DNA from: a virus
DNA: 64,000 nucleotides
IMG/VR virus record: IMGVR_UViG_3300035670_000105
Location: 1 to 64,000 of that record
Reading direction: 5' to 3' (one strand)
Translations under genes and position numbers: made by a program
Notes under the pieces: model-generated
The model's database searches: none
The model's input: the letters and a program-made list of their open reading frames with translations, nothing else
Told to the model about the DNA's origin: nothing
Shown here: piece after piece, positions 7,515-58,000 of the stretch
How positions within the stretch are numbered: position 1 is the first letter of the stretch
How the letters are laid out: every line of letters starts with the position of its first letter

Positions 7515-7579
7515 GGCACCCAGCAGGCTCCCTCCCCGGGGGCCTTGCATTGGTGCCTCTCAGGCAATCGCCATCAGCT

Positions 7580-7837: not shown

Positions 7838-7924
7838 TCTCATCCCCAACCCAGCAGGCTCCCTCCCCGGGGGCCTTGTTGGGGTGCCTCAGCAGAGATC
7901 GGCGCCTGCACACCCCTCAGGACT

Positions 7925-9139: not shown

Positions 9140-9655
9140 ATGAAGCGCCTCCTCACCACAATCTGCGCTCTCAGCGCAACTCTCCTCCCCACCGCCGCAC
9201 TTGCCAACCCCTCGGAAGCCTGGTTCCGATGGGCTGGTCAGATGGCAGCTCGCAGTGGTGTCCGCATCGACATCCGCAGCGACTGCCCTCGCACCCGCGC
9301 CGGTGGTTACATCCTCTCCACCCGCACCATCCAACTCTGCCAGGGCGCCATCTCCAATGGCCCGGCCTTCCTGGCTGAAACCCTCGCTCACGAGGCCGTT
9401 CACGCCGCTCAACACTGCGTTGGCCTTCACACCGGCAGCAACGACATGGTGCCCATCGGCCAGCTGCTCGCAGCTCACGGCCAAGGCACCCAGCTGCTGG
9501 AGATGGCCACACGCACCATCGCCACCAAGCGCCACAACATCACGGGCTCAACCCGTGGTGATTCACGCCTTCTGCTCATCGAAGCAGAGGCCTACGCCCT
9601 GGAAGATCACCCCACCCAGGCCATCCAGGTGATGGAAGCTGCCTGCCGGCGCTGA
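9140..9655 (+). CDS. Secreted zincin-like metallopeptidase
   Basis: Signal-peptide-like N-terminus; TLAHEAVHAAQ (HExxH) with a downstream EAEAY. Confidence 0.7.
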   Translation: MKRLLTTICALSATLLPTAALANPSEAWFRWAGQMAARSGVRIDIRSDCPRTRAGGYILSTRTIQLCQGAISNGPAFLAETLAHEAVHAAQHCVGLHTGSNDMVPIGQLLAAHGQGTQLLEMATRTIATKRHNITGSTRGDSRLLLIEAEAYALEDHPTQAIQVMEAACRR

Positions 9656-9724
9656 CCATCACCTCCACCCATCAGGCTCCCTCCCCGGGGGCCTTGGGTT
9701 GGTGCCCCATTGCGCCATCAAGCA

Positions 9725-11358: not shown

Positions 11359-11826
11359 ATGGCTGATCGCATCCCTGACGCCATCAGCCAGGCCCACCTG
11401 GCCAGCCTCCTGCAAGGGCGCAGCTCCCTGCCTGAGGTGAGCTTCTCCAAGGATCACCCCAGCGAGATGGGCTTTCTCCTGGCCCTGCTCGTCCACCGCT
11501 CGCTAGACAGGGGCCCAACACAGGCACACCTGGCGCATGCCGTCATGTGCCTGGTGATGACTCTTCAGCACCACCTCTCAGAAGACGCCGCCAAGGCGGT
11601 GGGCAAGGTTCGCGGTCCCATGGACACGATCCTCCCCCTCTTCCTAACGCAACTGGTGTCCCTCACCAAGCACATGGAAGGCCTCACCGACTCCCTGCTG
11701 GACGCCATGCACCACCAGCACGGCTTTCGCTTCGACGGCACCGTCTCTGACGATTTCCTTACCTCCATCGGCATCAGCCGAGAGGAATATGAGGAGTTTC
11801 GTCAGCAATCCAGCCCTAAAAGCTGA
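11359..11826 (+). CDS. Hypothetical protein
   Basis: 155-aa ORF, coupled to an upstream small membrane ORF (11160..11366). Confidence 0.6.
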   Translation: MADRIPDAISQAHLASLLQGRSSLPEVSFSKDHPSEMGFLLALLVHRSLDRGPTQAHLAHAVMCLVMTLQHHLSEDAAKAVGKVRGPMDTILPLFLTQLVSLTKHMEGLTDSLLDAMHHQHGFRFDGTVSDDFLTSIGISREEYEEFRQQSSPKS

Positions 11827-11920
11827 GCTTTTCGTTGATCACAACAAGGTTCCCTCCCCGGGGGCCTTGGTTTTGTGCAGCCAACTGGTGCTGCATCTCT
11901 TTGCTCATTCACAACACACC

Positions 11921-12217
11921 ATGGGCCTCTTCAACTTCAACTTCTCCTCCACCATCACCTCCACCACCGCCACTGCTGATACCAGCAATACCCCTCAGGT
12001 GGTGGAACTGCAACTCAATGAGGAGCGCGTCACCGTCCCGATGACTGAAGCCGAAGGCAAGACCATCGCGCAACTGTTCGCCAGCTACAGCGGTGACTTG
12101 GGTGACATCAGCCGCATCAGCCGCTTCGTGGCTGCTGGCCGCATCGTGGATGCCGACAGCACCCCGGAAGCCGGCGTCGTCTACCGCGGCGCCATCAGCT
12201 CCGAATCCAAGGGCTGA
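11921..12217 (+). CDS. Ubiquitin-like (beta-grasp) protein ending in Gly
   Basis: 98 aa; S/T-rich leader then VVELQLNEERVTVPM...KTIAQLFA...GVVYRGAISSESKG*; first gene of the JAB/E2/E1 operon. Confidence 0.7.
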   Translation: MGLFNFNFSSTITSTTATADTSNTPQVVELQLNEERVTVPMTEAEGKTIAQLFASYSGDLGDISRISRFVAAGRIVDADSTPEAGVVYRGAISSESKG

Positions 12218-12241
12218 ACCCCATCCATCCCTGCAACCCCT

Positions 12242-12269
12242 GCGCCCCACTACGGGGCGCTTTTTCTTT
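12242..12269 (+). terminator. Terminator/attenuator between the Ubl and JAB genes
   Basis: GCGCCCC-ACTAC-GGGGCGC plus TTTTTCTTT. Confidence 0.7.
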
Positions 12270-12284
12270 CCTCACGCCACTCCG

Positions 12285-13334
12285 ATGACTGAACCATCCA
12301 CTTCCGAGCTGCTCCGCACCGCCCGCCACGGCTGCTGGCAGCTCAAACGCAACGCCTGGGGCCAATTCCTGGCACCCACCGATGACCCCCTGGCCAATGT
12401 GGTGCTCTCTGATGAGCAGCTGCAGGGCTTTGAACTCAACGAGGGCATTGCCCCGATTCCAGCGGATCTTTGGAGCCGCTGGGTCAAGCTCTGCTTCCAC
12501 TTTGTCCAGGCCCGCACCAGCAACTTGGAGGTGTCCTGCCGTCTCCTGCGGCATGAAACCGACAAGAGCCAATGGCGCATCCTGGTGCCCCCGCAAGAAG
12601 TCAGCAGCGGCTCGGTCCGCGCTGAATCCTTCGATGGCTCGATCGACATCACCACCGGTGAGGTGATCGAGCAGTGGCCCCCTGATGGCTGGATCCCCTG
12701 CGGCTCCAGCCACAGCCACAACACAATGGCCGCTTTCTTCAGCGGCACCGATAACGAGTACGAGCTGGGCGACCCCGGCTTGCACATTGTCGTCGGCTCG
12801 ATCTCCCTGGCGGCCCGCAACTACACCTACAAGGCGTCGATCACCGCCAACGGCCGCCGGTTCCTGATTGATCTGCCCCTCGTGGCGGATCTCACCCCCA
12901 CCACCGATGACTTCCACCCGGATGTCCTCAAGGTGGTGGAGCTGAAAACCTGGCGGCCTGCTGCAGTCCACGCCCAGCAGTGGACCCGCTCAGCTGGCTT
13001 CACCGATCCCAACGCCGGCAACGGCTACTACCGCCGGCCATCTAGCACACCCCTCAGCGGACGGCTGGATGACGACTGGGATCCGGACTGGGATACCACC
13101 CGGTTCCCCAGCTACGAGAAGAGCACTTTCGGCGAAATCAACACCGCCGATGTGGAAGAGCAGATCAACTGGTTGATCCGCGATGCCTTCTCCATGGGCC
13201 AGGACGCCCACCTGCTTGCTGCCCTGGACCATCTCCGTGAATCCATCGACTTCAAGATCGATGAAATCGTGTCGCTGGATGCGGCGCTTGACGCCAATGA
13301 AGAACTCACCACCTCCCCCTCGCAACAGCCATGA
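12285..13334 (+). CDS. JAB/MPN+ metallo-isopeptidase (PRTRC protein A-like)
   Basis: N-terminal E (NLEVS), VPPQEVS, and GSSHSHNTMAAFFSGTD = H-x-H-x7-S-x2-D JAMM motif; GLHIVVG. Confidence 0.85.
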   Translation: MTEPSTSELLRTARHGCWQLKRNAWGQFLAPTDDPLANVVLSDEQLQGFELNEGIAPIPADLWSRWVKLCFHFVQARTSNLEVSCRLLRHETDKSQWRILVPPQEVSSGSVRAESFDGSIDITTGEVIEQWPPDGWIPCGSSHSHNTMAAFFSGTDNEYELGDPGLHIVVGSISLAARNYTYKASITANGRRFLIDLPLVADLTPTTDDFHPDVLKVVELKTWRPAAVHAQQWTRSAGFTDPNAGNGYYRRPSSTPLSGRLDDDWDPDWDTTRFPSYEKSTFGEINTADVEEQINWLIRDAFSMGQDAHLLAALDHLRESIDFKIDEIVSLDAALDANEELTTSPSQQP

Positions 13335-14623
13335 CCAATCCCTTCTCCCCCCAGCAGCCGCCACGGCTGCATGTCGAACCTCTGCCCACCGGTGCGCTGG
13401 CTGCTGCAGCCGAGCGCCTCACTCACGACAATGGCCAGCCGGTGCTGGACATCAGCGTCTGGCTGCCGAATGAGTGGGCTACCAATGAAGCCCGCGACCG
13501 CAACGGCCGTCGCGTCCACATCGGTGCCACCCACATCGGTGCCACCCGCAGGGTGCCTTCCGAAGACGCCACCGAAGAAGCCTTTGCCTGTTTTGAGCGG
13601 GATGTCTGCTTCAACTGCCGGTACTACTGCACCGACCGTGACCTGGACTGGGACGACGTCGACGACATGGAATGGAATGACGGCGATGGCAACTACTGGC
13701 GACTCAGTGGTGCCACCGCCGACAGCCCCTGTCCTTGCCACCGCGATGGCATCGATGAAGTCAACTGGCCCTGCACGGCCGGCCACGACGAACCTGACCC
13801 CTCGGACTACGAAGACGAAGACGAGGACGAGGACGAGGACGGCGAAGACACTGGTGAAACCATCAATGACGGACTGCTTCACCTCGGCCCGACACGGTTC
13901 ACCACCCGCCGCTACCTCAGCGGTGCCTGTTACACCTACCTCGGCCTACCTCAGCGCTATGAGTTCACCGCTCACCTGCAAAAACTGAGCATCACCGGTG
14001 ACGCCTTCAGCGTCGCCTACACCCGCCGAATGGCGAACACCTTTGACCCCAACCAGACCGTCTGCTGGGGCAATGGCAACACCGTGCCCCAGTCCCTGGA
14101 GGAGGCGGCGGCGGCCTACGCCCAGGCCAATGCCAACGACGACCTCCTCAACGTGCACACCGCTGCACATAACTGCCGGCTAGCAGCAGAGGATCCCACC
14201 CCCTATGAGCTAAACAAGCTCGCCATCGCCCTGCCGCCCACGGCCGATGAAGAGCGCCTGGCCCTCGTGGTGGCCGATGCCGCCACGATGCCCGACGCCT
14301 TCCTGCTGCTGGCGGCTAGCGGTGCTACCACCGGCGATGGCCTCGCCATCGCTGCCGCCCAGTGGGTGAACGCCCTGCCATTGCCCAATGGCCAGCAGTT
14401 CACCGGCTGGGCCACCGCGCCCCTGGCTGGTGGCTGCAGCTGGCTGATCGGCCAGACCGCTGCCACCGGCACAACAGCAGCTCGCTTTGTACTGCTCGGT
14501 CAGCACAACCTCCAATCCCCCACCCCCTCACCTCTTCCAATCCCATGCGACTCGCACGCACTCTCGTCATCGGCTGCGGCGGCACCGGCGGACACCTCGT
14601 CCCTGCCCTTGCCCGTCTGCTGA
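13331..14623 (+). CDS. Prokaryotic E2-like protein (Prok-E2 family D / PRTRC protein B-like) with a Cys-rich N-terminal region and acidic tract
   Basis: MANTFDPNQTVCWGNG resembles the N-x(6-7)-C-W-G catalytic motif; sits between JAB and E1. Confidence 0.6.
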   Translation: MTNPFSPQQPPRLHVEPLPTGALAAAAERLTHDNGQPVLDISVWLPNEWATNEARDRNGRRVHIGATHIGATRRVPSEDATEEAFACFERDVCFNCRYYCTDRDLDWDDVDDMEWNDGDGNYWRLSGATADSPCPCHRDGIDEVNWPCTAGHDEPDPSDYEDEDEDEDEDGEDTGETINDGLLHLGPTRFTTRRYLSGACYTYLGLPQRYEFTAHLQKLSITGDAFSVAYTRRMANTFDPNQTVCWGNGNTVPQSLEEAAAAYAQANANDDLLNVHTAAHNCRLAAEDPTPYELNKLAIALPPTADEERLALVVADAATMPDAFLLLAASGATTGDGLAIAAAQWVNALPLPNGQQFTGWATAPLAGGCSWLIGQTAATGTTAARFVLLGQHNLQSPTPSPLPIPCDSHALSSSAAAAPADTSSLPLPVC

Positions 14624-15267
14624 ACTACCACGCAGCTACCGCGCCGATGGGCGATCGCCATCCCGTCACCGTGATCGACGGTGACACCTTTGAAGAACAC
14701 AACATCAGCCGGCAGCACATCGGCGTTGACCAGATCGGCGTCAACAAAGCCGACTGGCTCGCCGCCCTCTGCCAGCAGCAGGGGCTGCCGGTGGACTCTG
14801 TCCCCAGCTACCTGGACAAGGCGCTGCTGCGCAAGCTGCTGCGCCGTGACGCCAGCCCTGTCCTGCTGGTGGCGGCCGTCGACAACGACGCCACCCGCAA
14901 GCTGTGCATCGATGTGCTGGAAGAATCCAGCCGGGACTTCCTCTTCATCACACCCGGCAATGCCGGCGCGGAGGATCCCGATGCCGCCATCCGCGGCAAT
15001 GTGCTCTGGTATGGCCGCCAGGGGGATGAGGCGATTGGCCTCAACCCCGCCCTGGTGTTCCCAAACATCGAGGAACCCCAGGACGCCATCCCCCGTGAGG
15101 GCAGCTGCGCCACCCAGGCACCATCCTCCCCGCAGTTGATCACAGCCAATGTGCTGGCCGCGGCCTACACGCTCACCGTCCTGCAGAACCTGCTGGATGG
15201 AGCGATCAACACGACCGCGAGCAGCGTCTTCTTCAACGGCCGGCGTTTTGCGCTCTCGGCCTCCTGA
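14545..15267 (+). CDS. E1/ThiF-family Ubl-activating enzyme
   Basis: VIGCGGTGG, IDGDTFEEHNISRQ, NKA, AVDNDATR, GSCA (candidate catalytic Cys), PQLITAN. Confidence 0.9.
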   Translation: MRLARTLVIGCGGTGGHLVPALARLLNYHAATAPMGDRHPVTVIDGDTFEEHNISRQHIGVDQIGVNKADWLAALCQQQGLPVDSVPSYLDKALLRKLLRRDASPVLLVAAVDNDATRKLCIDVLEESSRDFLFITPGNAGAEDPDAAIRGNVLWYGRQGDEAIGLNPALVFPNIEEPQDAIPREGSCATQAPSSPQLITANVLAAAYTLTVLQNLLDGAINTTASSVFFNGRRFALSAS

Positions 15268-15305: not shown

Positions 15306-15887
15306 ATGACTTCAACCCTTTCCAATCCGCTCACGCCTGATGCCATCCAACTGGGCGACACCATCGTCCAGCTGCAAAGCCTTGTCGAGGCCTATGGCAC
15401 CGTGCTCAACCAGGCCAAGCAGCAGCTGGAGCAGCTGGAGCTGACTCCCGAGCAACTGCGCCGCGTGGAAGAGCGGGCGCATCAAAACATCAACCTGCAG
15501 CGTCTTGCTTGCACACTGGTCAATCAATTCGACGTCAGCAGCTCTGTCGGCACCGACCAGCAAAGAGCCTTTGACGCGCTGCTGGATACCATCGTGCGCC
15601 GCGTCACCAACCGCATCGCCGATGCAACCCTCGCTCGCTTCCGCGATGAAATCCGAGGCCTCGTCGACACCGCCATAGAAGAAGCCCAGGACAGATTCAA
15701 GCTTCAGACTGATTCCTATTTCAACCGCGTTCAAGACCGCCAACTCTCCAACCTCCGAGCTGACAACGATGAAATGCGTAGAACACTACGCCGTGTCCTC
15801 AGTCAAGCCTTCGCTCCAGAAGAGCTAAACGGAATGGCCGTTATCGCCATTCAAGAAGAACCCACCACCAATGAGGTGAACGCATGA
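15306..15887 (+). CDS. Hypothetical coiled-coil protein
   Basis: Helical, Q/E/R-rich ORF directly after E1. Confidence 0.65.
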   Translation: MTSTLSNPLTPDAIQLGDTIVQLQSLVEAYGTVLNQAKQQLEQLELTPEQLRRVEERAHQNINLQRLACTLVNQFDVSSSVGTDQQRAFDALLDTIVRRVTNRIADATLARFRDEIRGLVDTAIEEAQDRFKLQTDSYFNRVQDRQLSNLRADNDEMRRTLRRVLSQAFAPEELNGMAVIAIQEEPTTNEVNA

Positions 15888-20779: not shown

Positions 20780-21003
20780 CGATGCGCCGATTCTGATTGG
20801 CATGGCGATCCTGCTGTTCCTCGGCATCGGAACGATGGCTGGTCTGGTGTGGATCACCAACAACTTGGTGCAGCAAGTGAAGCGAATTGACGGCGAGAGC
20901 AAGCAAGCACTGGAGCGTTCAACAGAAACGCTGCGCCAATGCACCGAGCAGCTCAGGTAGCCCCTCCCCGGGGGCCTTGAGCAACTGCCTTTCATCTCAG
21001 GCA

Positions 21004-21972
21004 ATGGCAACTGCAACCAAGGCTTCACGCAAACGAAAGACTGAAGGCCCCACACCAGAAGAGAAGCTCGTCGCCGGGCTGATCGAACTGCTGGAAGCTG
21101 GCGTCAACCCGTGGCAACGGGACTGGCGCGGCACCAGCCTGGGGCAACATCGCAACCTGATCTCCAGCGAGCCGTATCACGGCGGCAACCCTGCCCTGCT
21201 GGAGATGCAACTGGCGATGCGCGGCAGTGAACTGCCGCTCTGGGCTGGCCACGGCCAGGCCAAGAGCAAGGACTGGTACCCACGCAAGGGCAGCCGCGGC
21301 TGCTACATCGTGCGGCCCCAGCTCAACCGCTACGAGGAACTCGATGAGGGCGGCAAGCCCGTGCTCAACGAGCAGGGGGAAGCGCAACTACGGCAATGGA
21401 CATCGTTCAAGCCGGTGTGCGTCTTCAATGCCGCTGATCTGGAAGGGGAGGGCCTGGCCGAGGCGATTGCCGCGGCCATCGGCACCCCCGAGCAGCGGCA
21501 GGAGCCGGAGATCCTGCAGCAGGCAGAAGCGGTGCTGGGCGCCTGGTGCGTTCCTGTCACCTATGGCGGTAACAGCGCGTTCTATTCGCCCATGGCGGAT
21601 CGGATCACGCTGCCGCCACGGCATCAATTCCTCAGCGGCCCTGGCTTCTACGCCACCTGGGCGCATGAGGCGGTTCATAGCACGGGGCATGGCGATCGCC
21701 TGGCCCGTGACGGGATTGTGCACTTCGCGGGGCGCGCTTCCGAGAGCTACGCAAAGGAAGAGCTGATTGCTGAGCTGGGCGCCTTCCTACTGGGCGTGCG
21801 GCTGGAAATCGGCAGTGCCGTAGAGAACCACGCGGCCTACCTGGGCTCGTGGATTGCTGCGCTCAAAGCCCAGCCCAAGACGCTGCTGCAATCGCTGAGC
21901 GCAGCGACGAAAGCAGCCAACTTGATCCACCCCGAAACCATCACCCCGGCACCAGCCGGTGAAGACCAATGA
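21004..21972 (+). CDS. ardC: ArdC-family antirestriction/ssDNA-binding protein with zincin-like domain
   Basis: PWQRDW, NLIS..PYHGGN, VFNAADL, DRITLP, HEAVHSTGH, YAKEELIAELGA, HAAYLGSW. Confidence 0.9.
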   Translation: MATATKASRKRKTEGPTPEEKLVAGLIELLEAGVNPWQRDWRGTSLGQHRNLISSEPYHGGNPALLEMQLAMRGSELPLWAGHGQAKSKDWYPRKGSRGCYIVRPQLNRYEELDEGGKPVLNEQGEAQLRQWTSFKPVCVFNAADLEGEGLAEAIAAAIGTPEQRQEPEILQQAEAVLGAWCVPVTYGGNSAFYSPMADRITLPPRHQFLSGPGFYATWAHEAVHSTGHGDRLARDGIVHFAGRASESYAKEELIAELGAFLLGVRLEIGSAVENHAAYLGSWIAALKAQPKTLLQSLSAATKAANLIHPETITPAPAGEDQ

Positions 21973-45004: not shown

Positions 45005-45750
45005 TCACTGACGCCGACTTCCAGGTTCTCGCCGCCAACAATCGCGTTCCAGCGCTTGACCTCGCTCAGGTCTTCAGTGCTGGCGAACGCCAGAAACGAA
45101 TTGACAGCTGGATGACTCAGCTGGAGCAACTCGGCGTCCTGACCGGCTACGACCGCAACGTGCTTCAGCAGTGGCAAGATGCCGGCTATCCAGGTGCACG
45201 CCCCCAGCTGTCGATCGAGATCAACGCTCCCTACAGAGAACAGGACGAAGAAAAGCAACAGACCGCTGCTCAGCGACTAATTCGACAAGAGCAGCGCATG
45301 CTTGACGAATGGCTTAGACATGGGCAATTACGCACCGAAGTAGAACAAGAACAGCGCCTGCTGCGGCACTACCCCATCTCTTATCCCGCTTTCATCCGGC
45401 GTCAACAGGAACTGGAGCAAGCTCGCAAGGAAGCACTTCGCGCCCAACTCATCGCCGACCGCGAACGTCAAAAAGCTGAACAACTGGAAAGAGAAGCGCT
45501 TGAGTCCCTCAAGCGGCAAATGGAAGAAGATCGCAGGCAGCTCACCGCAAGGGTCGAGGCTTACGTCGAAGACCCGCTGGGCAGCACCTTCGACCTGACC
45601 GAAGGCGAGTTCACCCACTGGTGCGACGAGATCGCCACCCCTGAGCAACTGGATGCGCTCACCAATGCCTTGGCAGCCCGTGGCCGCTACAACGCGCTGC
45701 CACCCTGGCAGCGCTGGTTGCTCACGCGCCTTGCTCCCTTACTCGCCTAG
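45001..45750 (+). CDS. Hypothetical coiled-coil protein
   Basis: Q/E/R-rich ORF converging on the integrase. Confidence 0.6.
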   Translation: MITDADFQVLAANNRVPALDLAQVFSAGERQKRIDSWMTQLEQLGVLTGYDRNVLQQWQDAGYPGARPQLSIEINAPYREQDEEKQQTAAQRLIRQEQRMLDEWLRHGQLRTEVEQEQRLLRHYPISYPAFIRRQQELEQARKEALRAQLIADRERQKAEQLEREALESLKRQMEEDRRQLTARVEAYVEDPLGSTFDLTEGEFTHWCDEIATPEQLDALTNALAARGRYNALPPWQRWLLTRLAPLLA

Positions 45751-47096
45751 TCGCTGCTCCCGCCCGAACCCAGCAGCTGCTGCAGTGCTGCCATCTGCAA
45801 CCGCAACTGCTCCAGCTCCTGCCTCTCCCCATCAGCCAACACATCACGCCGCGCTGCGTCAAACTGCTGCTGCTGGTGGCGGCGCATTCGACCTGGCGGC
45901 AGCCATCGCAGGTAGATGCGCTGATGCACCTCCCAGCTGTGCCCAAGCCATGCCGCTTGCTGCTCTGGATCCACGCCGGCCGTCTCAGCACTGGTGGCGC
46001 AGCGGATCGCATAGCTGTGCCGCAAGTCATACGGCCGCAGCCAATCCACACCCTCTCCCTCCGCCACTGGCGCCACCAATCGCTGCACGCCGCGCAGGGT
46101 GAACTGCTTGCGCAGGTACTGACCCAACTCAGCATTGTTCACCGGAATCATCACTCCGCCGCGCTGCTCCCATCTGATCGGCCAACGCTCCAGCAACTGG
46201 CCGCGGCGCCAGGGCCATTGCTCCGCCAGTCGGTAGCGCTGCAGCCAGCGGCCTGGCACCGGCGGCGCAAAGTGCGCCCTGGCGGATTTGGTGCGCATCT
46301 CACCCGGGATCGTCACCCATCCCCTCGCATCCACCCCCTCGATGTGCCACAGCTCATGCGGGCGGATGCCATAGGTGGCTGCCACGGCGAACACCCACTG
46401 GTTGAAGCCGTCCAACCCATCCAGCCATGCCTCGATCGCGCTGTCGCTGGGCACCAGCCGCACCCGTAGCCCCTGGGCTGCAGCCAGTCGCACCGCCGCA
46501 CCTCGCGGCCGGCGATTGCGCAGCTCGGCCAGCACTGGCGGCAGAGCCAGCTCAGGCGCAACCCGATCGATCCAGCTGAGCACTTCCAGCCTGCGGTTGT
46601 AACTGCGCCGCTGCTCCAACGGATCCACCTGCCGGGCCCATTCACCCAGGGCCTGCGCCGATGGCACGCCCTGGAGCTGGGCGATCCGCAGCCGCAGATC
46701 GTTGAGCAGATGCACCCGGCTGCCCTGCTTCGGGATCGCCTTGATCACCTCCGCACTCACCTGCTCCGCCAGCACCTGCCAGCTGCTGCCGCCACTGGAG
46801 CGCTGCTGAGGCCGTGGCTGCGGCCAGCCCTTCTGCTTCACCGCCAGCAGGCACAGCTCCGCCGCGGCCGTGATGTCCTCGCTGCGATCACAGCGCAGGG
46901 GGGCCAACGAGAACCGCTCCACCGTCATCCCCACCTCCATCCGCCGCACCCAGAGATGGGGCGAATCGCGGCGGCGCCACAACCGCCAGGGGCTGCCGGC
47001 CGCCTGTAACCGGCGCAGCGCCAGTAACCAGTGCGCCTCCACCTCCCCATCACCCCATCCCGCCTGTCTTGCCTGTGATGACGGATGAGACGACAT
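45747..47096 (-). CDS. int: Tyrosine recombinase (integrase); start uncertain
   Basis: YGIRPHEL (R), TK, YDLRHSYA, LGHS...H..IY; adjacent to a tRNA 3' fragment. Confidence 0.85.
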   Translation of the reverse strand: MSSHPSSQARQAGWGDGEVEAHWLLALRRLQAAGSPWRLWRRRDSPHLWVRRMEVGMTVERFSLAPLRCDRSEDITAAAELCLLAVKQKGWPQPRPQQRSSGGSSWQVLAEQVSAEVIKAIPKQGSRVHLLNDLRLRIAQLQGVPSAQALGEWARQVDPLEQRRSYNRRLEVLSWIDRVAPELALPPVLAELRNRRPRGAAVRLAAAQGLRVRLVPSDSAIEAWLDGLDGFNQWVFAVAATYGIRPHELWHIEGVDARGWVTIPGEMRTKSARAHFAPPVPGRWLQRYRLAEQWPWRRGQLLERWPIRWEQRGGVMIPVNNAELGQYLRKQFTLRGVQRLVAPVAEGEGVDWLRPYDLRHSYAIRCATSAETAGVDPEQQAAWLGHSWEVHQRIYLRWLPPGRMRRHQQQQFDAARRDVLADGERQELEQLRLQMAALQQLLGSGGSSD

Positions 47097-47205
47097 TCCA
47101 TGCACGCTGGCGTGCACGAATCCTGCCGCATCCGGTCCATCTCTGTCCCTGTCTGTCACCCGTTGGACAGGCGGGAAGATCGGTGAGACGCCAGTGCTGG
47201 CCAAT

Positions 47206-47230
47206 AAAAAACCCCGCCGGAGCGGGGTTT
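47206..47230 (-). terminator. Terminator downstream of the tRNA fragment
   Basis: Minus strand AAACCCCGC-TCCG-GCGGGGTTTTTT. Confidence 0.8.
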
Positions 47231-47237
47231 GTGAGAA

Positions 47238-47282
47238 TGGCTCGGGGGAGACTTGAACTCCCGACCTTGGGGTTATGAACCC
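47238..47282 (-). mobile_element. attP core: 3' half of a tRNA with CAT anticodon (Met or Ile2)
   Basis: Minus strand GGGTTCATAACCCCAAGGTCGGGAGTTCAAGTCTCCCCCGAGCCA = anticodon arm, T-arm and acceptor 3' strand; no 5' half present. Confidence 0.85.
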
Positions 47283-47575
47283 ATCGACAAACCCCTGAGA
47301 AACCCCTGCTATCACAGGCTTCTCCATGCACGCCCCGCAGGCTGCCGTGCACGCCGGCTCTCAGTTCTCCTCCAACAGCAACCGGAACACCGTCAGCAGG
47401 CAGCTCTCCAGCAGTGCCTGCTGCAGGGCAGCCAGGCTGCACTCACCGCGGCGGTAGCGGCCCAGCGCGCCCTGCACATCGAGCAGCAACACCTCAGCCA
47501 CCTCAGCCCCCTGAAACCCCTGCCGCTTCACCTGCTGCCGCCAGCGCAGTGGAATGATCCGCTTCCACATCGTCC

Positions 47576-53313: not shown

Positions 53314-54398
53314 TCAGCCCCGCTCCCGCTTTGTGAAGCGGCCATGCTCATCGCGGCCAGTGGCTGGCTCGTCCTCCTTGCGCAGCGCGGGGTTGTAGGT
53401 GTTGTACCCCAGCGCATAGGCGCCGCGGCCCGTCACGCCCAACCCCATCAAGGGCATCGCCGTGAAGTAGCAGGAATCCACAGCCTCACGGCTTTGCGTC
53501 TTGCTGGAGAAGCGGCAGTCCGCCAGGTACACCACGCCGAGAATGATGGCCAGGTTGCTGGCGACGGTGAGCAGCTTGCCTGCGCCGCCCATCGCCGCCA
53601 AGGCCGTGGTCAGTTTCACGCCATCTCCAGCAGTTGCCTGTGAGGGTATGAACGGCGTCAGCGGGCGTTCTGCGATCCGACGCCGCCACCCCTGAGCTTC
53701 ATCCACAGCCGGCGCAGCGGGCCTGGATGGATGATCCTCCGGCGCATGATCACGGCGATCTCCTCGTAGAGATCCTCCAGGAGCTTGCAGTGGGGCTCGG
53801 CGCTCACCGGCGGCTGCCGCCGTTCGCCCTGGTCGTATTGCAGCGAGAGGATACCGATCGGCAGGTTGCCCACCCGCACCAGGCGGTTATACATCCGGCC
53901 GATGTTGTTCTTGTTGAGGTGGTCCCGGCAGGGCGCCGGCAGGCTCTCCCGGTACTCCGTGACGCTCCAGCACTCACCAGCTGGATCCAGCATCGTCTCC
54001 AGCTCCACCATGATCCGCCCGACGGGCAGATCGCGGATCGGCACTGTCATCGGCAGTCGCCCCGGGGCCGTGTAGCTGTTGATCGTCGAGAGCTTGGTGA
54101 GGTGATAGCCGCAGCTGTCGATGGCGCCGTTGTGAAAGGCCGCCAGCACCACCCGGCTGGCATTGGTGATCACGCCAACCTGTGCCAGCAGGTTGTTGAG
54201 CATCCGCTCTTCCTCGATCGGGGCGAACACGCCATCAAGCCGTGACACCACCTTGCTCTTGAACAGCCGATCCCATGCCAGCCAGCTCAAGGCCAGCAAG
54301 GCGATCAGCCCATCACCTGTCAGTGTCACGCTTAACCCGCCTTGCTCCTTGGCGGGTTGCGGCGGCGGCGCAACCTGCGCCTGCGTCGGACCCACCAT
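53314..54398 (-). CDS. Two membrane proteins (53314..53619 with two TM helices; 53658..54398 TM + GAF-like), candidate holin/antiholin
   Basis: Hydrophobic helices; SRVVLAAFHNG...IGILSLQY GAF-like pattern; TACCCT upstream of each. Confidence 0.55.
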
Positions 54399-54468
54399 GG
54401 CTACTCAGGTTCCCAGCTCTACGGCAGAGGGTATGGAGCGCTTCGACTGGACCGACTGCCTGCGGCCC

Positions 54469-55073
54469 TTACCCCACCTCGGCTTCCACGGTCTCGGCGG
54501 GCAACTCCTCGGCACTGGCTTCAGGCTTGATCAGCTCCACCTGCTGCAGGAATTGGCTGAGCTGGGAGGTGGCAAATTGCTGAAGCAGTCCATTGCCAGA
54601 GGCACGGGCGGCGGCGTAGCTCTCGATCAGCGCGGCGAGTTGCTCCTTCATACCTGAGGAGGGGTGAGAGTGTAGATCGAATCCAGATTACTGAGTTCAA
54701 GGACAGTTTGAAGTTCAGTCAGTTGCTCAGCGCTGAAAGTGCCGGCCTGCAGGATGGCCAGCATTGACTGTTGGATCGCTGCTTCATACGGCCGCCCGGC
54801 TTTGGCGTCACCCAACAAGGCAATGAACTCGGTGCCGAGGGTGTTCATCGGCAGGCTGACCATCGATTGCTCGCGGATGGCGGCATAGAGGCTGCTGGCC
54901 ATCAGGCCCTCCCAGAAGGCGAAGTAGTCGGGCGCCGGGGGTGGATCGCTGGCAGGGATGCCAGGGTTCTCCGCCTCAGCCCGTTCGGCATCGGTGAGCG
55001 GGAAGTCATCGGGATGCCCGATCTGGCCGTCGTATTCGATGGTGCCGTTCGGGAAGATGTTCTGGAGGGTCAT
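54469..55073 (-). CDS. Two small tail-fibre-associated genes (54469..54651, 54648..55073)
   Basis: Coupled downstream of the large fibre gene. Confidence 0.55.
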
Positions 55074-55075
55074 GA

Positions 55076-58000
55076 TCAGGCGATGCGATAGGTGATGAAG
55101 GTGTTGGCGGCAGTCTTGCGGGTCAGGAAGCGACCGCTGCTGTTGGCAGCAACGACCATGTTGCCGACGACTGTGTGCCCGGTGTTCTGCACCACCGTGA
55201 TGGCGTGAGTGGCAGCTGCGAGGTTGACGACACTCCATTCAAACGACTGTTCTGTCTGCAGCTCCTGGAAGGCCGCATCCATGTTGGTGCCAGTGGGCAG
55301 GGTGTAGTTAATGGCTGCCGCTGGTGTACCGGTGCGCAGTCCATCCAGCATGGATGCTGCGGTGATCGTGACACTGGTGTTTGATGCGGCAGCAGCAGTG
55401 TTGTATGTGACGGTAGTGCCGCTGCGAACATCCCCGGCGAAGTAATTCGGGGCGGTGCCAGCGGCGTAGAAGTTCCAGCGGCCTGTGGTTGAACTGAGAT
55501 TGCCGTAGAAGCCGTAGTTGTCGGTTGCTTGCGTGAGGTTGGCGTTCGCATGAAAGCCGATCTGAGTCGTGATTGTCGATCCGGCGCCCTTGGTTTGACC
55601 GGTTGCATGGAAGTGCTGGAGGCTTGGAAGTGTGAATGTTGCAGCGGCGGTAGTTAGTTGGGTGACGTAGCCATAGGCGGCGGCTGTTACATCGCTTTGA
55701 ACCGTAGATACAGTGAAATTGGCATAAGAAGTAGTGCCACCCGTGATTGCCCCTTGGTTGTAAAGCGTGACAGTTGCAGCGCCCCCACCTCCAATCGCAA
55801 CATTGCCATCCCCACGGACGCGAATCCGCTCGGTGCCGGCAGTGCTGATTCCGATGGTGTCCCCCGCAGGGCGGAAGAACCCAGTGTTCTCATCGCCGTC
55901 CCAGGTAAAGCCAGGAGCGCCAGCCGTGTCGGCGCCGATGCCTTGGATTTGGCCATTGAACCGAGCGCTTCCGGCGACATACAGAAGATCGCCGGTATCA
56001 CTGGTGCTGCCAATTCCCACGCGCCCAGCAAAGTAGTTGGGGGCATCGCCATCCATGTAGGTGTTCCAGCAACCCGCATTCGCCGGCAAGGTCGCCCTGA
56101 AGGCGTAGTTGCTGACGCCACCAACCATCGTGGAGTCAACCCTGAAGCCATGCTGGCCAGTAACTACTGAGCCAGCTCCAAACGTTGTTTGCGACGCTCG
56201 GTAGTGGTCGAGGTTGACCACCGTAAAAGCTGCTGCCGCCGTGCCGAGCAATGTTCGGTAGCCATAAGCCGTGGCTGTTACATCGCTCTGAACTGTTGCA
56301 GTGGTGTAGTTGGCGTAAGCTGTTGTTGCGCCTGTAATTGGCCCCTGATTGCGGAAGGTTGAATCGGCGCCGCCACTGCCCCCAATCGCAACATTCCCAT
56401 CACTGCGGATCCGCATCCGCTCAACAGCGGTGCCGCTGCCTGCAGGGGTGGTGCTGAAGATCAGGCGACCGGGCATGACACCCGCACTCGGGGTGCCATC
56501 CACTTGACAGGTAATCTCGCCGGCCTTGATGAAGTTTGTGCCATCAGAGCCGACCCAATCGTGGACACCCAAACCAAAACCATTGGTGACAATCAAATGG
56601 GTGCCGATTGTCGTGCTTGCGCTTGCGGCTTGGCGCCAGACAGGTGTTGTACCGAAATGAGCCTGCGTGCTGATCCTGCCGTTATTGGCACCACCAGCTT
56701 GTATTTGGAATATCCCAACGGAGCCAGCCCCATCATTCAGTATGGTGCTACCACCAACAATCAGGCGTGCATTCGTGAAAATACCTCCGCTGCTTAGCGT
56801 GAGTCTCTCCGTGCCACCCGTCGCAATTCCAACCGTGTTCGCCGCTGGCAGGTAGAGCCCGTTAGCCGGAACCGTGGCACTGGTGGGGATGAAGCTGCCG
56901 GATGTAAATGTTCCTCCTGCCGTGATGTTGCCATCACTACCAATCCGCATCCGCTCCGTGAGCGTGTTCCCCGCACCACTCCCCGTCGTCCAGAAGGTCA
57001 GCGCCTGATCGGCACCAGTGGTATCCGCCACGGTGTTGGCGATCTTGGAGCGCACCATTGCTCCAGGGCCGTTGGCATCAGCGGAGAAGAACTCCAGCGC
57101 CGAGCTGTCGGTGTTGGCGGTGAAGGCGCCGCTGTAAGTGTCTCGCAGGCGGATGACGGGGCCTACGGTTGTTGAGGTCCCGGCCTTGGCAACTTCAAGG
57201 CTGACGCCTGGCGTCGTGATGCCGATGCCGACATTGCCGGCGAAGTAGTTATCGGCTGTACCATTGGCGTAGAAGTTCCAACGACCAGCGGCTGAGGCCA
57301 GGTTGCTGTAGAAGCCGAAGTTGTTGGTGGCGTCTGTCAGGGTAGAAGCCGCTACAAAACCATACTGATTAGTTATGGTTGAGCCGGCGCCTTTTGTAGT
57401 TGCGTTTGCAGAGAAGTGATGAATGTTTACAACGGTAAAAGCTGCTGCTGCAGTCGTGAGGCTAGTCGAGTAACCAAGCGCGGTTCCGGTTACATCGCTC
57501 TGCACGGAGCTGGCTGTCAGATTTGCGTATGCACTCGTCCCCCCTGAGATAGTTGTTTGGTTGTAAAGCCCCACGATGGCAGATCCCGTGCCTCCAATCC
57601 CGATATTCCCGTCACTGCGGATCCGCATCCGCTCCAATGGGCCATTGGCACCTTCCGGGGTAGTCCTGAAGCGAAGATCACCCGGCATTGCTGTGCCGGA
57701 AACCGTGCCAGCACAGAACCCTTGAATATCAGCAGCGCGAGTGAAGATCGTCCCGTTGGAGCCCTGGAACTGAAAAGAGCCAAGCAGGGTGCCGCTTATG
57801 ACAGCCGTGTGTGCGCCAATCGTATCAGAATTGCTTTTTGCAACGACGAATGCCGGAGCAACGGTTGTCAGGAATCCGTTGTAGAAACCGATTGCAGTGT
57901 TATGTGTAAAACCGCCAAAAGTTCCCGCCATTGTCCATCCGGCGGCTATATTGCCAAGATCATTATCCGACCTGCTGATATTAATTACTGACGCCGAGTT

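Follow-up and report, generated by a model that had tools for sequence, protein, structure and literature searches.

A five-gene phage cassette that probably encodes a ubiquitin-like conjugation cascade

In the open-access papers and preprints that we searched, experiments have demonstrated bacterial conjugation of ubiquitin-like proteins (Ubls) only in anti-phage systems that the host encodes, namely Cap2/Cap3 of CBASS (systems of anti-phage signalling based on cyclic oligonucleotides), Bil and Bub. In type II CBASS, Cap2 is an E2-E1 fusion and, with Cap3, acts on a CD-NTase substrate. Bil is likewise host-encoded, with the gene order Ubl-E2-deubiquitinase (DUB)-E1 and a multidomain E1 that has a separate Cys domain (10.1101/2023.09.04.556158; 10.1101/2023.09.26.559546). 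In Bil and Type II Bil, the E1 and E2 form thioesters and a JAB DUB trims the Ubl past its conserved Gly (10.1101/2023.09.26.559546; 10.1101/2023.09.04.556158), so that the residues after the Gly of Type II BilA constitute a removable pro-peptide (10.1101/2023.09.26.559546). A further arrangement, class 6d of Iyer, Burroughs and Aravind (2006), comprises a Ub-like protein, a JAB protein with an N-terminal domain, an E1-like protein, an E2-like protein and a fast-evolving alpha-helical protein (PMC1779556). Here we describe a cassette of about 4 kb and five genes in the uncultivated virus IMGVR_UViG_3300035670_000105 of IMG/VR, a record of 90,162 bp. The DNA analysed (the window) is the stretch of 64,000 nucleotides at positions 1-64,000 of that record, and coordinates refer to it unless a genome is named. 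The cassette best fits a viral form of class 6d, and its most likely reading, to which we give a probability of about 0.7, is a Ubl conjugation cascade owned by the virus itself.

Gene content and predicted folds of the cassette

The five genes are as follows.

11921..12217, + strand: Ubl modifier of 98 aa with the C-terminal sequence SESKG (Gly98); identified from an AlphaFold2 model with Foldseek and VIA matches
12285..13334, + strand: JAB/JAMM metallopeptidase of 349 aa with an invariant JAMM motif and a variable C-terminal extension
13331..14623, + strand: E2-like carrier of 430 aa with N236-x8-C245-W-G and weak but consistent structural matches to E2/UBC proteins
14545..15267, + strand: minimal, single-domain E1 (ThiF/MoeB-type) of 240 aa with a candidate thioester Cys188 in GSCA (codon 15106-15108)
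15306..15887, + strand: fast-evolving fifth gene of 193 aa, with a homologue after E1 in related loci

A reading of the same DNA made from the sequence alone, hereafter the sequence-only reading, had described four consecutive and partly overlapping genes in the order Ubl-JAB-E2-E1, and all four were found as described. They are co-oriented between 11921 and 15267 and have coding-type G+C content at third codon positions (0.73-0.78). The stop codon of the JAB gene overlaps the start of the E2-like gene as ATGA, and the E1 gene opens 79 nt inside the E2-like gene (overlap 14545-14623). Most members of the E2-like family carry a conserved-looking tail (C.S....SS..A.L) that is the other-frame reading of the DNA encoding GxGGxG of the E1. 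An E2-E1 fusion made by frameshifting was considered and is unlikely, because in the low-GC relatives L005 and L009 the two genes do not overlap.

The 98-residue protein ending in SESKG, as first called, opens with MGLFNF, which a disordered linker joins to a beta-grasp core (residues 27-92), and closes with the flexible SESKG tail. Its start was placed at 11921 rather than at that of a longer open reading frame (ORF) from 11789 because the N-terminus is conserved (MG[LF]FNF in homologues). The AlphaFold2 model, built from a 99-homologue alignment, had a mean predicted local distance difference test score (pLDDT) of 78.6 (about 90 in the core) and a beta-beta-alpha-beta-beta-beta order of elements. 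All 50 Foldseek matches listed were beta-grasp proteins, among them MoaD, SUMO, NEDD8, ubiquitin and TGS, with probabilities of about 1 yet E-values of only 5e-3 to 5e-2; the VIA matches were also all beta-grasp, with MoaD and TtuB about as close as ubiquitin. The fold of 11921..12217, proposed earlier as a point to check by modelling, is thus beta-grasp by AlphaFold, Foldseek and VIA. The profile of the family gave no significant match in PDB and Pfam (protein G, E 0.36; ThiS, with one homologue, E 0.006). ThiS is the partner family of ThiF. One homologue is labelled as coming from a metagenome-assembled genome of Cyanobium.

Both ends of the Ubl are conserved. Gly98 is invariant among the 99 aligned sequences. 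SE.KG is shared by nearly all of the 120 best homologues, and the wider pattern S-[ED]-x-[KR]-G was present in 111 of them; in 52 of these 111 the Gly is terminal, and in the other 59 it is followed by 1-4 variable residues. The remaining 9 of 120 have a Gly at the end or at most two residues from it. A conserved Gly followed by short variable extensions is what a modifier whose pro-peptide can be removed shows, Type II BilA being the precedent. At the other end, M-[GAS]-[LF]-F-[NSD]-[FQ] (within 11921-11998) was found in 106 of 120 homologues and leads into the variable linker, which is modelled with low confidence.

The JAB protein has an intact JAMM motif, HSH-x7-S-x2-D, just as the sequence-only reading had stated, and 5 homologues have E82, H143, H145, S153 and D156 without exception. 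The first 100 residues are strongly conserved, with R11 and W25 invariant. A Vibrio phage protein with 29.5% identity to it (E 3e-8) scores above the Prok-JAB cut-off (35.5 bits). The profile of the cassette JAB had no match in PDB.

The E1 scored 34 bits against Pfam ThiF (cut-off 28.1), and in PDB its profile matched ThiF, MoeB, Uba4, UBA5, the E1s of SUMO and NEDD8, BubCD and Cap2. The motifs first attributed to it (GxGxxG, NxxRQ, VDN and a Cys in GSCA) held up, whereas its ATG lies at 14545 and not at 14542. Counting from this Met1, G10, G12, G13, G15, D45/D47, N53xxR56Q57, K68, D113-N-D115 and Cys188 are invariant, and the motifs themselves (GCGGTGG, NISRQ, VDND(ATRK) and the GSCA Cys) are invariant across two viral E1 families that are only 26-28% identical. 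Judging from its position in the sequence, Cys188 probably lies in the crossover loop.

The AlphaFold model of the E2-like protein, a confident one (pLDDT 85.3; predicted template modelling score 0.74), was aligned by VIA against all representative chains, and about 35 of the 50 matches listed were E2, UEV or BubB chains, with E2s at the top. The structural matches cover residues ~19-290, which therefore would form a UBC-like core with an insertion of about 150 residues (a four-Cys module and an acidic linker); a further alpha/beta domain occupies residues 297-393. We take the Cys module to be inserted into the core, not fused to its N-terminus. Across 56 aligned sequences, N236, C245, W246, N269 and D271 were invariant, as were C93, C96, C134 and C148, which from their pattern are likely to be a zinc site. 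The Asn...Cys-Trp-Gly loop noticed at the outset is thus present and invariant, with the correction that its spacing is x8 (N236...C245) rather than x7. The model places N236 and C245 in a loop after a beta-meander that ends at 228 and before a helix that starts at 256, with two helices following. In E2 structures, HPN-x8-Cys is followed by helix 2, and the modelled loop resembles this arrangement in spacing, although the protein has no His-Pro before Asn236. After C245, the only invariant columns are W246, N269 and D271; a His in the next helix is a majority residue but not an invariant one.

Other searches with the E2-like protein were negative. It had no match in a sequence-profile search of Pfam, NCBIfam, PHROGs, PADLOC or PDB, its model returned nothing at E<=0.001 in Foldseek against PDB and BFVD, a comparison with the ESM Atlas gave no usable match, and tblastn against 50,697 GenBank phage records found none. 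In hhalign, the family (whole, residues 180-300 or residues 1-300) was not significantly similar to Prok-E2_D (12.9 versus 10.2-10.9 for the reversed control), and at this non-significant score the Asn...Cys motifs of the two families were aligned with one another. The sequence-only reading had named a UBC fold at 13331..14623 as something to verify: the best matches of the model are indeed E2s, but they are weak, and E2 homology is undetectable at the sequence level. We consider a UBC-like fold likely, though not proven.

The fifth gene had no significant family match in Pfam, NCBIfam or PHROGs. Its homologues share the motif QLDNL...Y...L.QAK.QLE.LEL and in loci L003, L004 and L005 open 2-3 nt past the E1 stop codon. 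We regard its product as a candidate helper, adaptor or substrate.

The carrier phage and its relatives

The 90,162-bp record is 100% complete by CheckV. Among its products are the large terminase, an integrase-like protein and a lysin, together with a virion protein, a tail protein and a tail fibre of the Mtd_N type. Because it has terminase, virion, tail, lysin and integrase genes, we take the element to be a phage that is temperate by gene content (hereafter the window phage), and the proposal that a phage carries the whole set of tag-writing and tag-erasing genes is thereby borne out. Its host is probably a cyanobacterium. No ParB_N, PRTRC_B, SMODS or rhodanese gene was found in its genome; the assertion that CD-NTase, ParB and sulfur-transfer genes are lacking therefore stands for SMODS, ParB and rhodanese, which were sought across the genome.

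Scans with the E1 and Ubl recovered 16 related loci on about 11 distinct IMG/VR contigs of 39-284 kb, with a locus GC of 35-65%. A survey of synteny across such loci had been suggested as a check, and the order Ubl-JAB-E2-E1 on one strand was the same in 16 of 16, with the fifth gene next in 15 of them. Given an E2-like family of 68 cluster representatives (by exhaustive HMMER search) and a Ubl family of 194 clusters, this association is far more than chance.

The carriers are diverse. One relative (G001, the contig of locus L003) is a complete phage of 85 kb with terminal repeats and an integrase, and its large terminase is 51% identical to that of the window phage. The terminase match in G001 (54348-57005) falls in two pieces within one frame of 895 aa, which suggests an intein or other insertion. 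A second (G003) is complete at 224.5 kb and carries psbA, and no tyrosine integrase was found in it. A third (G006), also complete, measures 284 kb and carries psbA and psbD, two photosystem II reaction-centre genes. When all ORFs of the window phage were compared with the 224.5-kb phage by tblastn (E<=1e-5), only the cassette and two short matches were found. Since these two phages share almost the cassette alone, it must pass as one piece from phage lineage to unrelated phage lineage. Of the short matches, one is a 37-aa match from positions 74937-75125 (- strand) of the window-phage genome to a site ~100 nt downstream of psbA in G003, and the other a 96-aa match from 82338-83756 (- strand), where the protein carries a GTP-binding domain.

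Outside these contigs, 185,579 representative prokaryote genomes were scanned for JAB motifs with few peptide patterns, and no relative was found; blastn matches of the locus in GenBank phage records were all short and chance-like. Our search of open-access papers and preprints found no description of a Ubl cascade encoded by a phage or cyanophage, a scope that makes an earlier description possible, and a 2021 survey of jumbo phages makes no mention of JAB, ThiF or E1.

Around the cassette, the following features were noted.

11845..11869, + strand: hairpin followed by a T-run (terminator-like site) just upstream of the Ubl gene; a recurrent early-region motif
12242..12269, + strand: G+C-rich hairpin and TTTTTCTTTC in the gap that separates the Ubl gene from the JAB gene; seven G-C pairs, a 5-nt loop and a T-run
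9140-9655, + strand (that of the cassette): SprT-like zincin upstream of the cassette; E 3.9e-5, just under the cut-off
20887-21972, + strand (that of the cassette): ArdC, an ArdC-N and MPTase-PolyVal protein, 5.6 kb downstream of the cassette
45747-47327: integrase, by family match

The cassette had been placed near ArdC, and the distance given above agrees with this. The cassette strand also encodes a PD-(D/E)XK nuclease and an AAA_25 protein that resembles a primase-helicase. The structural genes lie far from the cassette, which is co-oriented with early and replication genes, and the region can fairly be called an "early/replication arm". The first hairpin falls within the longer ORF that opens at 11789. 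It belongs to a hairpin-forming motif, GG[C/T]TCCCTCCCCGGGGGCC, present four times on the + strand of the early arm (7526-7544, 7857-7875, 9675-9693 and 11848-11866) against a chance expectation of 0.05 matches; these hairpins may serve as transcription punctuation of early gene cassettes. The second hairpin, from its sequence, is a candidate partial terminator.

Comparison with described systems

By its five-part composition, the cassette is best matched by class 6d, in a comparison made at the level of published descriptions. In both, the Ubl is small and its terminal Gly conserved, the E1 is without rhodanese, the E2-like protein is stand-alone, with its Cys conserved and the classical HPN His lacking, and the fifth protein diverges fast. 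The fifth protein of class 6d is alpha-helical, and that of the cassette was judged helical from its sequence alone. The N-terminal region of the cassette JAB, with R11 and W25, recalls the "JAB-N" of class 6d and its conserved Arg and Trp (PMC1779556). There are also differences: the E2 of class 6d has an absolutely conserved His C-terminal to the Cys, in place of which N269 and D271 are invariant in the cassette, and class 6d is found in bacteria and plasmids, whereas the cassette is phage-borne and its E2 has a four-Cys insert and an extra C-terminal domain.

The other described systems fit less well. The sequence-only reading had called the set PRTRC-type (ParB-related, ThiF-related; NCBIfam TIGR03734-03742), and PRTRC_ThiF and PRTRC_A are indeed the best NCBIfam matches of the E1 and JAB, respectively. 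Their scores, however, are far below the cut-offs (56 versus 144.75 bits for the E1; 21.7 versus 101.8 bits for the JAB, E 1.2e-4 and in the motif region alone), and neither PRTRC_B, ParB nor a PRTRC_C match for the Ubl was found, so that the assignment fails in the strict sense. Bil was rejected because PADLOC returned no BilA, BilB or BilC and BilD only at E 0.035, the E1 is a single domain of 240 aa, and the order is Ubl-DUB-E2-E1. Type II CBASS Cap2/Cap3 was also set aside: there is no SMODS gene, the E2 and E1 are separate genes, and the PADLOC match to Cap2 is limited to the Rossmann part of the E1.

Other viruses carry related but differently composed gene sets. Loci L010-L022, on low-GC viral contigs of which one is an IMG/VR provirus, have the layout [338 aa]-Ubl-E1-[276 aa]-Prok-E2_D (for example, L012 4591-8072). 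Their E1s, 26-28% identical to that of the window, have the same invariant residues, and their Ubls end in HKKG or HRKG, sharing the Lys-Gly of the window tag; gene order and partners differ, and their E2 is above the Pfam Prok-E2_D cut-off whereas the cassette E2 belongs to no sequence family. In cultured phages, an E2_D-like gene adjoins a JAB homologue in Vibrio phages, D69 among them (L023, 3149-4924), and in the Bacillus jumbo phage vB_BceM_WH1 (L024, 2492-4801) a JAB gene adjoins a ThiF gene annotated as adenylyltransferase. The JAB and E2_D-like genes of these Vibrio and Bacillus phages are annotated as hypothetical proteins.

Proposed function of the cassette and its alternatives

We propose the following course of events. 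The beta-grasp tag would be produced, and probably overproduced, given that the Ubl gene is flanked on both sides by hairpins with T-runs. In relatives whose tags have 1-4 extra residues, JAB would trim these and thereby expose the terminal Gly. The E1 would then adenylate Gly98 with ATP and hold the tag on Cys188 as a thioester, from which it would be handed to Cys245 of the UBC-like E2 and placed on lysines of target proteins. Target choice may lie with the four-Cys module and C-terminal domain of the E2 and perhaps with the fifth gene, and JAB would also remove the tag. Host (cyanobacterial) proteins, modified during infection, are the most likely targets. More speculatively, and with considerable doubt on our part, the tag may mark chosen host proteins (for example, those of defence or the photosynthetic antenna) and offer its N-terminal M-[GAS]-[LF]-F and disordered arm as a handle for host proteases or sequestration, in effect a portable viral degron.

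Several points weigh against a virus-owned conjugation cascade. The E2 is its weakest link, as E2 homology of the 430-aa protein is undetectable by sequence. The JAB protein scores 20.8 bits against Pfam Prok-JAB, under the gathering score of 25 (E 3.6e-4), and does so in the motif region alone. Enzymes of the E1 superfamily that do not conjugate (MccB, TcdA and those serving sulfur carriers) are among the matches of the E1 profile, and no E3 was recognised. A search for RNA sequencing runs that contain the locus returned none. The host is a putative one, as the genome is that of an uncultivated metagenomic virus, and the small set of peptide patterns limits the negative result of the prokaryote scans.

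Of the competing explanations, the one that survives best is a Bil-like defence carried for the benefit of the lysogen, in which the structural proteins of superinfecting phages are tagged and competitors excluded. The integrase genes of the window phage (45747-47327) and of its 85-kb relative agree with such a role, as does Bil itself, which is built of the same four parts and attaches its tag to the tail fibre of a phage (10.1101/2023.09.04.556158), and published reviews predict operons of this kind to be defensive (10.1101/2023.09.26.559546). The cassette is, however, also kept in the 284-kb phage with psbA and psbD and in the complete 224.5-kb psbA phage without a tyrosine integrase, the latter of which weakens the role in the "prophage state" that had been suggested at first. 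In addition, motif scans of representative bacterial genomes did not find it, its proteins match no BilA, BilB or BilC in PADLOC, and it shares its orientation with the early and replication genes instead of standing apart as a moron. On balance, we think a defensive role unlikely.

The cassette could instead serve phage assembly or replication, with phage proteins rather than host ones being tagged or chaperoned in the manner of lambda TAPI/TAPK. Ubl and JAB proteins do occur in lambdoid tail-assembly clusters (PMC1779556), and the fifth gene, which accompanies the cassette in 15 of 16 loci, could be a substrate. Yet the lambda system has neither E1 nor E2, and the structural genes are a long way from the early/replication arm where the cassette sits. 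Because the window phage and the 224.5-kb phage have almost only the cassette in common, and no other candidate substrate, a shared phage-encoded target besides the fifth gene is unlikely, and we consider this explanation very improbable. Least probable of all, with hardly any weight in our view, is a sulfur carrier or peptide precursor activated by the E1 (ThiS/MoaD-, TtuB- or MccB-like) with the 430-aa protein as a Cys/Zn transferase: the E1 profile does match ThiF, MoeB, Uba4, MccB and TcdA, the Ubl model is as close to MoaD and TtuB as to ubiquitin, and the 430-aa protein lacks significant E2 homology by sequence, but its top structural matches are E2s and not sulfurtransferases, the Ubl ends in KG and not GG, the JAB and pro-peptide pattern suit conjugation, the genome has no rhodanese, and Pfam and NCBIfam recognised no cofactor or thiolation gene among 10 cassette and flanking proteins, the part of the genome to which that search for sulfurtransferases extended.

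Conjugation of a Ubl by the virus itself thus remains our preferred reading. Temperate phages and large cyanophages with psbA exchange the cassette, and motif scans did not find it in representative bacterial genomes. Its five genes and 4 kb make it small enough for direct tests in vitro and in model cyanobacteria, and its E2, with the four-Cys module, may reveal how targets are chosen without a separate E3. If the reading is true, bacterial viruses would put protein tagging to uses of their own, just as ubiquitin is exploited by the viruses of eukaryotes.

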